Positions 43,511-44,259 of a stretch of 64,000 nt of DNA are shown piece by piece. The notes under the pieces were generated by a model, which had not been told where the DNA came from, made no database searches, and was given only the letters and a program-made list of their open reading frames with translations. Position 1 is the first letter of the stretch. The number at the start of each line of letters is the position of its first letter. The DNA comes from Escherichia phage EF1-1: sequence record PQ571289; one strand, 5' to 3'. A program made the position numbers and the translations under genes.

Positions 43511-43993
43511 ATGTCACAAGAACAAGATAACACAATTCAAAAATATGCTCGACCAGAAGAAGTAGTTGAGATTCCGTTAGATGGAAACAGATCTGTTACT
43601 TTCCGTATTATAAAGTGGAGTCCATCTAAAGTGTTTGACAGGATTCCAGAATTGGGTAGTGTTCTGGTTGTTCCTATGACTATGTATAGCACAGCAACAA
43701 TGTCCGCAGACGAAGACCTTGAGTCACGTATTGCTATGGCACTGATCCAACTTTTTGCAGGTTTGGAAGAAAAGAATTTAACTGTCTTTTTGCGTAAAAT
43801 TTTAGATGAGGTTTATACTCAAGACGGTTATAACGTTGCAGAAAATTTTGATGAATTATTTATGGCTCACCCAGAACTAGTGTTAGATCTTACTGCTAAA
43901 GTTCTGGAGGTAAACTACGGCCCTTTTTTCAAACGAGGTTTCGGAAAACTGTTCACACAGCTTCAGGCGATGACGAGTTTAGCAGCAAATTAA
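43511..43993 (+). CDS. tail assembly chaperone (zero-frame product)
   Basis: 160 aa directly upstream of tape measure gene; contains slippery heptamer TTTTTTC at 43924-43930. Confidence 0.55.
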   Translation: MSQEQDNTIQKYARPEEVVEIPLDGNRSVTFRIIKWSPSKVFDRIPELGSVLVVPMTMYSTATMSADEDLESRIAMALIQLFAGLEEKNLTVFLRKILDEVYTQDGYNVAENFDELFMAHPELVLDLTAKVLEVNYGPFFKRGFGKLFTQLQAMTSLAAN

Positions 43994-44259
43994 CACCTGC
44001 GATTGAACATGCTATCGACACAGCAACGAAAACCCTTACTTTGAAGTGGTATGAGGTTATTCTTTGCAAAGTCGTTAAAGATACCTCGGAAACACTGAAA
44101 ACATTGGATAACTACGGTGTAGATTATCTTTTAAAACTATATGAGTATTTAACATACGAAGAGTATGTTGAAGCCATGTATGTTAAAGACACTTCAATAA
44201 AGAGAAAACATCAAAACCAGACAAATAAAATGTCAGATTTGTTTAAGAAACTTGTTTAA
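43511..44259 (+). CDS. tail assembly chaperone, predicted -1 frameshift fusion product
   Basis: -1 frame is open from 43900 to 44259; shift at T TTT TTC would join the two ORFs. Confidence 0.45.

Follow-up and report, generated by a model that had tools for sequence, protein, structure and literature searches.

Very probable programmed −1 ribosomal frameshifting of the lambda G/GT type in the tail assembly chaperone of a phAPEC8-like coliphage

We analyzed a 64,000-nucleotide stretch of Escherichia phage EF1-1 (PQ571289), referred to here as the window, which comes from a Phapecoctavirus, i.e., a phAPEC8-like coliphage, and is 99.7% identical to phage ZCKP1. The genes at the locus lie in the order sheath, tube, chaperone, small −1-frame ORF, and tape measure (Table 1), with the chaperone gene flanked by the tube gene on one side and the tape measure gene on the other. 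The 160-aa protein encoded by the chaperone gene (TAC-N; predicted mass, 18.16 kDa) matched the Pfam family PF21822 (Phage_TAC_15) over residues 29 to 143, corresponding to profile positions 3 to 125 of 127, with a whole-protein score of 84.1 bits (E = 1.6e-23) that is above the gathering threshold of 22 bits for this family. It also matched phrog_3840, "tail assembly chaperone," with an E value of 4e-55, and PF21822 was present in all 41 of its database homologues. SD binding energies were −6.4 kcal/mol for the chaperone gene and −5.9 kcal/mol for the tape measure gene, which is annotated as such in NC_047994. The terminator-like hairpin between the tube and chaperone genes may attenuate transcription, leaving less chaperone and tape measure protein than tube protein.

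Table 1. Features of the chaperone locus and its neighbors, with positions counted from the first nucleotide of the window
Feature	Position	Strand	Basis
Tail sheath protein (DUF3383 type), 457 aa	41566..42939	+	PF11863 E = 1e-19; phrog_205 "tail sheath" E = 3.5e-100
Tail tube protein (KPP10_Orf10 / DUF3277 type), 159 aa	42986..43465	+	PF11681; phrog_280
Terminator-like hairpin between the tube and chaperone genes	43471..43490	+	8-bp stem, then T-rich tail
Tail assembly chaperone, short form (TAC-N), 160 aa	43511..43993	+	PF21822 Phage_TAC_15; phrog_3840
Overlap of TAC-N with the already open −1 frame, 31 codons	43900..43993	+	Frame analysis
SD-like GGAGGT, candidate dnaX-type 5′ stimulator	43906..43911	+	Inferred
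Slippery decamer C CCT TTT TTC	43921..43930	+	Two overlapping in-frame heptamers
−1 extension (TAC-C), 109 codons + TAA	43930..44259	+	Open frame; protein conservation
72-aa "hypothetical protein" ORF, TTG start	44041..44259	+	Own gene in ZCKP1, ETEC-TG, and other records
Tail length tape measure protein, 662 aa, TTG start	44280..46268	+	phrog_16051, 1227 bits

The zero frame of the chaperone gene reads ...TAC GGC CCT TTT TTC AAA..., so that T TTT TTC (43924-43930) is a true in-frame X XXY YYZ heptamer. It is overlapped by a second in-frame heptamer, C CCT TTT (43921-43927), and the resulting decamer is the form that the site takes in the Stephanstirmvirinae lineages we compared. Both heptamers would yield ...NYGPFF|QTRF... 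after a −1 slip and hence a single product. TAA codons at 43897-43899 and 44257-44259 delimit the −1 frame, which is open from 43900 to 44259 (120 codons), while the +1 frame across the chaperone stop is open for 8 codons only. Because the −1 frame is already open within TAC-N in the 31-codon overlap, a productive −1 shift is confined to this overlap, where the two heptamers of the decamer are the only in-frame ones. An earlier note on this DNA had started from a chaperone-sized ORF, a T TTT TTC in its zero frame, and a −1 frame open from 43900 to 44259 that ends before the tape measure gene; the family matches, the codon reading, and the two TAA bounds bear out all of these.

As a chance estimate, we counted the in-frame XXXYYYZ heptamers in every ORF of the window that is 100 aa or longer. 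They occurred at a rate of 0.0041 per codon, which predicts about 0.13 for the 31-codon overlap. Past the 78 heptamers counted, the −1 extension had a median of 5.5 codons, and extensions longer than 60 codons were found only at the chaperone site (109 to 110 codons) and at one trivial ATGA gene overlap. This second case, a G GGA AAA heptamer at about 4876 on the minus strand with a 188-codon −1 extension, was set aside as an ordinary GGAGGGAAAATGA stop/start overlap of adjacent genes. The combination of a heptamer and a long open −1 frame at the chaperone gene exceeds chance expectation. The site is also of a favorable kind, only one tetramer being more shift-prone in E. coli than U_UU.C, and all-pyrimidine or homogeneous heptamers being favorable for shifting (Sharma et al. 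2014; PMC4066793).

The slip site was strongly conserved among relatives. NNT TTT TTC was seen unchanged in 15 aligned phage lineages, in 13 of 13 IMG/VR loci in a chaperone context, and in Aeromonas phage phiA019. In total, it was invariant in 21 of 21 lineages with this heptamer, some of them at about 30% chaperone identity, a count that, like the other lineage counts given here, overstates the number of independent observations because the lineages are phylogenetically related. In the 15 aligned lineages, with chaperone identities down to 29 to 39%, the two Phe codons were always TTT (15/15) and TTC (15/15), and the codon before them was either CCT (8/8) or TGT (7/7); the three other fully conserved Phe columns were split 7:8 or 8:7, and the overall usage was 74 TTT versus 78 TTC. 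The Vequintavirinae compared here have the site TGT TTT TTC, which contains GTTTTT. For an unbiased control, we searched IMG/VR with the degenerate pattern AAYTAYGGNCCNTTYTTYAAR and obtained 23 loci. All 13 loci in a chaperone context had CCT TTT TTC and −1 extensions of 103 to 113 codons, and the 10 unrelated loci had other codon combinations and −1 extensions of 0 to 35 codons.

Between the heptamer and a conserved Trp, the −1 frame contained 0 stops in 20 lineages, versus 51 and 61 in the other frames, and in all 20 of them the unbroken −1 frame and its protein conservation reached 37 to 56 codons upstream of this Trp, to the heptamer. Beyond these, the overlap of the Rheinheimera Barba phages contains G GGA AAG, the Phe-Phe pair having been lost; Vibrio S4-7 keeps the arrangement with an A AAT TTT heptamer, and Aeromonas phiA019 keeps T TTT TTC. 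These comparisons indicate that the arrangement and its slip site are kept among relatives despite their divergence, even where the heptamer has been swapped.

The predicted fusion, TAC-NC, consists of residues 1 to 140 of TAC-N and the 109 residues of the −1 extension, making 249 aa and 28.76 kDa (244 to 257 aa in relatives). Its predicted junction tryptic peptide is VLEVNYGPFFQTR, and the short-form equivalent is VLEVNYGPFFK. The extension is 24 to 65% identical at the protein level across Stephanstirmvirinae and Vequintavirinae and matches phrog_16039 and phrog_10409, each listed with "unknown function." A Pfam/NCBIfam search with the extension returned no family, only noise (such as dodecin and SecB) with E values above 0.01, and a PDB sequence search gave no match at E values up to 1. 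When the 249-aa fusion was compared with 5.8 billion proteins, we found no natural in-frame fusion; the 41 matches were all 158 to 175 aa long and covered the N-terminal part only. A model of the extension, made from the single sequence without an alignment, was all-helical with a pLDDT of 47.7, a quality too low to support a fold search.

Both frames appear to be constrained past the slip site. The −1 frame encodes an RFR motif just past it, and in rV5 a change of CGG to AGG keeps the −1-frame Arg at the cost of a zero-frame Phe-to-Leu replacement. Further on, the −1-frame helix ...PAIEHAIDTATKTLTLKWYEV... aligns with ...SKVVLRAMDYAKKNSSLTWFDY..., and its beginning lies upstream of the annotated TTG. 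The zero-frame tail is likewise kept among relatives (GFG...L), with a similar end point. These observations point to protein-level selection on the −1 frame from the slip site onward.

Among the 22 public records that we examined, none had a joined CDS or a ribosomal_slippage feature at this locus, and the downstream frame was typically annotated as a separate "hypothetical protein" of about 45 to 120 aa. In EF1-1, the −1 frame contains no start codon ahead of the TTG at 44041, which has an SD energy of +0.1 kcal/mol and lies within a conserved LxW motif. The SD energies of the candidate −1-frame starts ranged from about 0 to −4 kcal/mol versus −5.5 to −9.2 kcal/mol in 11 of 12 neighboring genes. 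The start positions of the downstream ORF are unconserved across 15 relatives, and in Hena1 and KB57 the first possible start lies 27 residues beyond the conserved Trp. All possible start codons lie downstream of the point where the conserved C-terminal domain begins, and each of them lacks a ribosome binding site. This pattern indicates that the ORF 44041..44259 lacks both a ribosome binding site and a start that could be used, and that its 5′ boundary falls inside a conserved domain; it is best read as the 3′ part of the −1 extension rather than as a gene of its own. The earlier note had expected a fusion of about 28 kDa carrying the sequence of this ORF, which agrees with the predicted 28.8 kDa, and had seen in the locus the conserved chaperone frameshift arrangement, a view upheld by the site in 21 lineages, the lack of start signals downstream, and the tube and tape measure genes on either side.

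As for stimulatory signals, the SD-like GGAGGT precedes T TTT TTC by 12 nt and C CCT TTT by 9 nt, distances within the 9 to 14 nt given for SD-like −1 stimulators (PMC5009743). Its duplex with the anti-SD has an energy of −10.7 kcal/mol, and −9.3 kcal/mol or better was reached in 15 of the 21 lineages; 2.4% of background positions reach −9 kcal/mol. The element is absent or weak in the remaining 6 lineages and is partly accounted for by a conserved Leu-Glu-Val, and its Glu codon was GAG in 12 of 14 cases versus 25% elsewhere in the genes (Fisher p = 8e-6, with phylogeny ignored). GGAGGT may stimulate slippage by pairing with the 16S rRNA. On the 3′ side, we found no sign of a stable, conserved stem-loop or pseudoknot of the kind that acts 5 to 9 nt past a heptamer: the predicted folds of 43931-44010 and 43890-44050 did not improve on those of shuffled sequences (z = +0.82 and +1.01, respectively), and RNAalifold over the 15 lineages gave 0 pairs. 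We also considered GGTTTC, 6 to 9 nt downstream, as an RNA element and rejected it: 05F01, L036, and phiA019 deviate from it, rV5 has a C-to-A change, and its conservation is better explained by dual coding (zero-frame Gly-Phe and −1-frame Arg-Phe-Arg). In E. coli reporters, heptamers lacking a stimulator exceeded a background of about 0.05% by no more than 2- to 10-fold (PMC4066793), and therefore the shift efficiency here could be low.

The locus could also be read as two genes, with the 72-aa ORF translated from its own TTG or by reinitiation and with the heptamer and the open frame upstream being incidental, as its annotation in GenBank/RefSeq, its treatment as families of its own in PHROGs, and the existence of an ORF with a permitted start codon would suggest. 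However, the TTG lacks an SD and lies 48 nt past the chaperone stop, and the start positions vary among relatives, falling well inside the conserved domain in Hena1 and KB57. Moreover, protein conservation and the open frame reach as far upstream as the heptamer in each of the 20 lineages, and two separate genes would leave the synonymous invariance of NNT TTT TTC unexplained, which makes this reading very unlikely. We find it barely credible that the locus is truly one continuous 249-aa ORF broken by a T-homopolymer error in sequencing or assembly, or that it is a pseudogene. Some sequencing chemistries make errors at homopolymers, and the T6 run is exactly where the frame breaks, but the two-frame layout is present in 131 independent phage records covering the locus and also in Vequintavirinae, other groups, and IMG/VR contigs. 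In addition, in-frame fusions numbered 0 among the 41 database homologues, and the zero-frame tail past the site is itself conserved.

In transcriptional slippage, polymerase stuttering on the T6 run (43924-43929) would add one U to some of the mRNAs, and their standard translation would yield the same 249-aa ...GPFFQTRF... protein. Because the predicted products are identical, protein-coding comparisons cannot separate ribosomal from transcriptional slippage, and Western blotting or mass spectrometry cannot tell the two mechanisms apart. The homopolymeric, invariant T-run and the folding results, which showed no 3′ RNA stimulator for a ribosomal slip, are consistent with a transcriptional origin, as is the work of Vladimirov et al. 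2022, cited in PMC12846349 for the view that T4-like phages may use a non-ribosomal mechanism. However, efficient slippage by bacterial RNA polymerase is documented at 9 A or T, compared with 6 T here, and at T5C5 it was undetectable without an adjacent nascent-RNA hairpin (PMC5009743); no such hairpin was seen directly 5′ of the T6 run in our folding of the region. What is conserved, furthermore, is a phased X XXY YYZ heptamer, with a T-ending codon followed by TTT TTC, and the motifs of relatives that lack the T-run, G GGA AAG and A AAT TTT, are non-homopolymeric and of the ribosomal slip type. With the SD-like element also at a spacing typical of −1 ribosomal stimulators, we consider transcriptional slippage quite unlikely.

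The chaperone gene of this phAPEC8-like myovirus thus very probably undergoes a programmed −1 ribosomal frameshift of the lambda G/GT type. Most ribosomes would read 43511-43993 and release the 160-aa TAC-N, and a minority would slip by −1 at U UUU UUC, with Phe-tRNAs on UUU in the P site and on UUC in the A site, during which the tRNA on the preceding CCU could re-pair on CCC. For the slipped ribosomes, the −1 frame would run from 43930 until the TAA at 44257-44259, yielding the 249-aa TAC-NC. The slip would be driven by the heptamer itself, possibly aided by the upstream GGAGGT, with no downstream hairpin or pseudoknot. If lambda is a guide, many TAC-N and few TAC-NC molecules would coat the tape measure protein through their common N-terminal domain, the −1-encoded C-terminal domain would recruit the tube protein so that a tail of correct length forms, and both forms would then depart from the assembly. 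We infer the occurrence of slippage, its efficiency, the binding partners, and the effect of the SD-like element alike; in the literature searched on phAPEC8, rV5, phi92, Stephanstirmvirinae, and Vequintavirinae, we found no protein, ribosome-profiling, or reporter data. The "frameshift" of PMC11726925 (a wcaJ mutation) and that of PMC13119998 (T4-like phages) are unrelated to the chaperone locus.

More tentatively, the signal shared by the clade, i.e., Stephanstirmvirinae and much of Vequintavirinae, could possibly be an unusual combination of the three-codon slippery decamer C CCU UUU UUC and a dnaX-like SD:anti-SD interaction, with no 3′ structure. On this decamer, the E-, P-, and A-site tRNAs may all be able to re-pair. 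To our knowledge, 5′ rRNA-pairing stimulators have not been described in a conserved tail-chaperone recoding signal, and this reading, if true, would extend them to tail-chaperone recoding. A variant in which transcriptional slippage on T6 produces part of the long form is still less likely.

The arrangement resembles that of lambda G/GT (Levin et al. 1993; Xu, Hendrix and Duda 2004, 2013, 2014, as summarised in PMC5009743). According to that summary, lambda likewise has a pair of overlapping ORFs after the major tail (tube) gene and before the tape measure gene; the second lacks a start of its own and lies in the −1 frame, and, as here, no 3′ structure is required. As in lambda, a short product and a long fusion would be made, neither of them expected in the virion. 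In systems of this type, the fusion amounts to a few per cent at a fixed ratio, tail assembly needs both proteins, and virions lack both. Here, TAC-N would be the counterpart of gpG and TAC-C that of T. However, the lambda heptamer is G GGA AAG, with a Lys-tRNA slip, versus U UUU UUC with a Phe-tRNA slip here, and the phage studied here, unlike lambda, is a contractile-tailed myovirus with a sheath. Its chaperone belongs to Phage_TAC_15, outside the lambda gpG family, and its C-terminal extension has no Pfam T-domain match. The possible upstream SD-like stimulator is a further difference from lambda, in which the ratio is 30:1. G-T frameshifting is widely conserved in long-tailed phages (PMC5009743).

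A recent study (2025; PMC12846349) proposed a −1 frameshift with an invariant GTTTTT in the TAC-N of Vandenendeviridae (Pakpunavirus Adele) and Andersonviridae. Those phages belong to related myovirus clades and have the same structural module, with TAC-N followed by a misannotated "hypothetical protein" and then the tape measure gene, and the proposal rests, as here, on a poly-T slip motif near the 3′ end and an unbroken −1 frame. Their GTTTTT differs from the CCT TTT TTC found here, which has no G before the T-run. Stephanstirmvirinae are mentioned in that study only as relatives, with their locus outside its analysis. The sites are likely to be homologous.

Two other E. coli systems share parts of the signal. 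In dnaX (A AAA AAG), as proposed here, a −1 slip takes place on a homopolymer-like heptamer with an SD-like element 9 to 14 nt upstream (PMC5009743). However, dnaX has a 3′ stem-loop, of which there is none here, and the SD-like element here is a candidate that is not universal among relatives; the dnaX shift also gives a shorter protein, its frame ending almost at once, whereas the shift here would give a longer one. The slip motif of T7 gene 10A/10B is G GUU UUC. That system (cited in PMC8785237) resembles the one proposed here in its UUU UUC Phe-Phe slip in a structural gene of a coliphage and its low-level, C-terminally extended product, although the gene is a capsid gene, the P-site context is another, and the extension is a virion component.

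The frameshift is ordinary in kind, being another case of known tail-chaperone recoding, and leaves the established picture unchanged. Its main value lies in annotation: about 130 Stephanstirmvirinae records and more than 200 from Vequintavirinae and related phages contain the locus and are probably misannotated in the same way, and correct gene models matter because Phapecoctavirus and Justusliebigvirus phages are in development for therapy and biocontrol. U UUU UUC has stayed fixed while the chaperone diverged to about 30% identity, and the heptamer can be replaced by G GGA AAG or A AAT TTT with the architecture retained. This amounts to a clean natural experiment favoring the idea that a set ratio of the two forms is required for tail assembly, to which the possible SD-like stimulator is a testable addition.

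Re-reading the frames bore out all coordinates in the earlier note, which had proposed a programmed −1 frameshift in the chaperone gene. The zero frame runs TAC GGC CCT TTT TTC AAA, with T TTT TTC (43924-43930) phased X XXY YYZ. Between TAA 43897-43899 and TAA 44257-44259 the −1 frame stays open for 120 codons; the +1 frame across the chaperone stop is open for 8 codons only. The gene call also held: scores of 84 bits against Pfam Phage_TAC_15 (cut-off 22) and E = 4e-55 against phrog_3840 identify the ORF as a genuine tail assembly chaperone. The unshifted product (TAC-N) has 160 aa (18.16 kDa), and the fusion (TAC-NC), anticipated at about 28 kDa, computes to 140 + 109 = 249 aa and 28.76 kDa. 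Overlapping the first heptamer is another in phase, C CCT TTT (43921-43927), absent from the earlier note, and a −1 slip on either gives the identical peptide ...NYGPFF/QTRFRK.... The comparative evidence supports the frameshift interpretation as a whole: a lambda G/GT-type programmed −1 ribosomal frameshift is the best-supported reading, and, judged from the sequence comparisons, the shifted fusion is very likely made at 43924-43930.

Features of the chaperone locus and of the tRNA cluster in the window
Feature	Coordinates	Strand	Assignment or remark
tRNA cluster, 11 genes	28677-30586	+	Met x2, Arg-TCT, Ser-GCT, Tyr, Asn, Thr-TGT, Gly-TCC, Gln-TTG, Pro-TGG, Ile-GAT
Tail sheath	41566-42939	+	PF11863; phrog_205
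Tail tube	42986-43465	+	PF11681; phrog_280; DUF3277-type
Terminator-like hairpin + T-run	43471-43490		tube/chaperone gap, directly 3' of tube gene
Tail assembly chaperone ORF	43511-43993	+	Phage_TAC_15; phrog_3840
Small ORF, publicly annotated	44041-44259	+	TTG start
Tape measure protein, 662 aa	44280-46268	+	phrog_16051, 1227 bits
Terminator-like hairpin + T-run	46275-46292		directly 3' of tape measure gene
Sigma-70-like promoter match, strong	46306-46335		11/12; 3' of preceding hairpin

The long ORFs of the window contain 0.0041 in-frame heptamers per codon, so that about 0.13 would be expected in the 31-codon overlap. After the 78 in-frame heptamers of the window the −1 extension has a median of 5.5 codons, and it exceeds 60 codons only at the chaperone site and at one trivial ATGA gene junction. 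A G GGA AAA heptamer at 4867-4880 (minus strand), 3 codons before a stop and with the −1 frame open for 188 codons, was considered as a recoding site and rejected, its sequence GGAGGGAAAATGA being an ordinary Shine-Dalgarno (SD) element plus an ATGA stop/start overlap of ORFs 4867-5796 and 4304-4990. Two other in-frame heptamers with moderately long extensions, T TTT TTC at ~37196 (minus strand; extension 39 codons, 81 codons before the ORF end) and A AAG GGG at 14288 (plus strand; 57 codons, 113 codons before the ORF end), are probably due to chance.

By megablast against 50,697 phage records, Klebsiella phage ZCKP1 is 99.7% identical to 42900-46300, and many phAPEC8-like coliphages (genus Phapecoctavirus, subfamily Stephanstirmvirinae) are 97-99% identical over the same interval. 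We compared the locus with those of seven further Stephanstirmvirinae-like lineages (PsgM04F, phiWec181 and phiWec190, phi92, KP2025, phi1_175008, 05F01, KP13-16), seven Vequintavirinae genera or lineages (rV5, SSE121, Hena1, KB57, CB7, CR9, 18-1-2), Vibrio phage S4-7, Aeromonas phage phiA019, Rheinheimera phage Barba18A, and IMG/VR contigs; identity to the window falls to 29-39% in the chaperone N-part and 24-38% in the −1 extension. Some records (MG065650.1, MG065639.1, MG065656.1, OP562383.1, OR584014.1) carry host labels that look doubtful. At the locus, 'Campylobacter phage B15/A150/C3...' and 'Acinetobacter phage vB_AbaM_ABPW7' share ~74-99.6% identity with Stephanstirmvirinae coliphages, and 'Pseudomonas phage PsgM04F', with 73% identity to the window, has the same arrangement as coliphage phiWec190; such labels possibly reflect coliphage contamination or mislabelling.

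The site reads NNT TTT TTC in all 15 lineages aligned (TTT 15/15, TTC 15/15), preceded by CCT (8/8) or TGT (7/7). In three other fully conserved Phe columns of this alignment, TTT and TTC occur 7:8 or 8:7, and Phe codon usage overall is 74 TTT versus 78 TTC. This invariance is supported by an unbiased control, an IMG/VR scan with the fully degenerate back-translation of NYGPFFK, AAYTAYGGNCCNTTYTTYAAR, which returned 23 loci. All 13 loci in chaperone context (7 distinct sequence groups) use CCT TTT TTC, followed by 103-113 codons of homologous −1 extension; at the 10 loci in unrelated genes the codons are CCA TTC TTC, CCA TTT TTT, CCC TTT TTC, or other combinations, with −1 extensions of 0-35 codons. 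Of the other phages compared, phiA019 retains T TTT TTC as AGT TTT TTC, the Barba phages have lost the Phe-Phe pair and have in the overlap, a few codons further downstream, a G GGA AAG of lambda type, and S4-7 has the slip-type heptamer A AAT TTT. In all of them the C-domain is the same and the −1 extension runs to 121-132 codons; the two-frame architecture persists where the heptamer has been replaced. In Barba18A an opposite-strand HNH endonuclease gene (L042, its comparison locus, 1832-2470) separates the end of the −1 extension from the tape measure gene, breaking a junction that is tight and conserved elsewhere.

The −1 translation is conserved from the slip site on: an Arg-Phe-Arg motif directly 3' of the site is followed by a variable Gly/Ser/Asp-rich linker, longer in Vequintavirinae, then a helix (PAIEHAIDTATKTLTLKWYEVILCKV in the window versus SKVVLRAMDYAKKNSSLTWFDYLWCRA in SSE121) and a conserved LLKLxEYLxxEE segment. 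In rV5 the second Arg is kept via AGG instead of CGG at the cost of a zero-frame Phe-to-Leu change, so selection favours the −1 reading at that position. The fusion length is steady across lineages (244-257 aa), and none of 41 database homologues, all of 158-175 aa, is a natural in-frame fusion; the two-frame arrangement is therefore maintained, neither fused nor split, as a need for two products in a set ratio would predict.

All public annotations that we opened draw 44041-44259 as an ORF translated independently, a reading that the comparison contradicts. Across 20 lineages, the stretch from the heptamer to the conserved Trp of the C-domain contains 0 stops in the −1 frame versus 51 and 61 in the other frames, a count that is partly circular in that the script registered only loci whose open frame reached 90 codons (0/20 loci failed this filter), and the conserved protein begins at the slip site. 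The first −1-frame ATG/GTG/TTG past the heptamer in the window is the annotated TTG 44041. It supplies the Leu of the LKW motif, which is conserved, and so falls inside the domain; the anti-SD duplex at this start has an energy of +0.1 kcal/mol, against −5.5 to −9.2 for 11 of 12 neighbouring genes and −2.1 kcal/mol for the twelfth, at 40872. In relatives a good SD was never found at the first candidate start, whose position shifts and in Hena1 and KB57 falls 27 residues past the Trp. The downstream ORF thus evidently has no independent start. The rV5 annotators evidently noticed the long overlapping ORF50 (L011, the rV5 locus, 1551-1919), starting it at 1551, a CTG immediately 5' of T TTT TTC, and called no frameshift; a rho-independent terminator is annotated between ORF50 and the tape measure gene.

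If RNA polymerase slipped on the T6 run instead, exactly the same protein would result, and sequence comparison, Western blot, and mass spectrometry are all blind to the difference. Such transcriptional slippage is nevertheless unlikely, because the run is short where bacterial RNA polymerase slips efficiently on runs of ~9, the hairpin that T5C5 needs next to it is absent at the site, and relatives lacking the T-run have non-homopolymeric ribosomal slip motifs. A sequencing indel is excluded by the presence of the two-frame arrangement in 131 independent records covering the locus and in metagenomic contigs.

For the ribosomal frameshift, neither the 80 nt past the site nor the 161-nt window around it folds better than shuffled sequence (z = +0.82 and +1.01), and RNAalifold predicted no pairs around the site over 15 lineages. 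The lambda G/GT frameshift likewise has no known 3' structure requirement. On the 5' side, an SD-like GGAGGT (43906-43911), with a duplex energy of −10.7 kcal/mol to the 16S rRNA 3' end, precedes T TTT TTC by 12 nt and C CCT TTT by 9 nt; spacings of 9-14 nt stimulate −1 shifts (Atkins et al., PMC5009743). An energy of −9.3 or better occurs at the same place in 15 of 21 lineages, and −9 is reached by 2.4% of random window positions. The element is coded by a conserved Leu-Glu-Val, whose Glu codon is GAG in 12/14 sequences versus 25% of the other 185 Glu codons in these genes (Fisher p = 8e-6, uncorrected for phylogeny). It is absent or weak in KP13-16, KB57, CB7, CR9, SSE121/Hena1, and phiA019, and GGAGGT is therefore only a plausible, non-universal candidate for a 5' stimulator. 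Sharma et al. (PMC4066793) rank tetramers A_AA.G >> U_UU.C > U_UU.U, with UUN and AAN the most shift-prone codons and homogeneous heptamers (all-pyrimidine or all-purine) generally better; most motifs without stimulators reach 2- to 10-fold over a ~0.05% background.

The tRNA cluster contains no tRNA-Phe among its 11 genes, so the Phe-Phe slip depends on host tRNA-Phe; the phage-encoded tRNA-Pro(UGG) could decode the CCU immediately 5' of the T-run. The two terminator-like hairpins, together with the promoter match 3' of the second, suggest that chaperone and tape measure are transcribed as a unit with attenuation of its own; the hairpins fit lower expression of both than of the tube. The tape measure start is annotated inconsistently, even among near-identical genomes: ETEC-TG (L002, 2507-4369) and PsgM04F place it ~125-150 nt later than ZCKP1, whose choice corresponds to TTG 44280 in the window, with a GAGGAA SD.

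In lambda, the tape measure protein is bound both by gpG and by the G part of gpGT, whose −1-encoded T domain binds and recruits the major tail protein (Xu et al., via PMC5009743); the gpG:gpGT ratio of ~30:1 is critical, and both proteins are absent from the virion (PMC5009743). By analogy, TAC-N and TAC-NC would coat the tape measure protein, and the C-extension may recruit the tube protein. The C-extension matched no family in Pfam or NCBIfam and no PDB sequence, and its single-sequence AlphaFold model (pLDDT 47.7) was unusable. The chaperone frameshift is widely conserved in long-tailed phages, P2-like myoviruses shifting 2- to 3-fold more often (PMC5009743). A 2025 paper (PMC12846349) uses evidence of this type to argue that chaperone genes of Vandenendeviridae and Andersonviridae, families related to the window's clade, share a conserved −1 frameshift in which the motif GTTTTT is invariant; Stephanstirmvirinae and Vequintavirinae are mentioned there only as relatives. 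The window site is probably positionally homologous to the one in these sister clades. As none of 22 GenBank/RefSeq records examined has a joined CDS at the locus, and full-text searches found no paper reporting the frameshift for phAPEC8, phi92, rV5, or their subfamilies, we count the site as a new, currently unannotated instance of a thoroughly known recoding event. Its main value lies in an annotation correction, a clean comparative demonstration, and the hint of an SD-like 5' stimulator.
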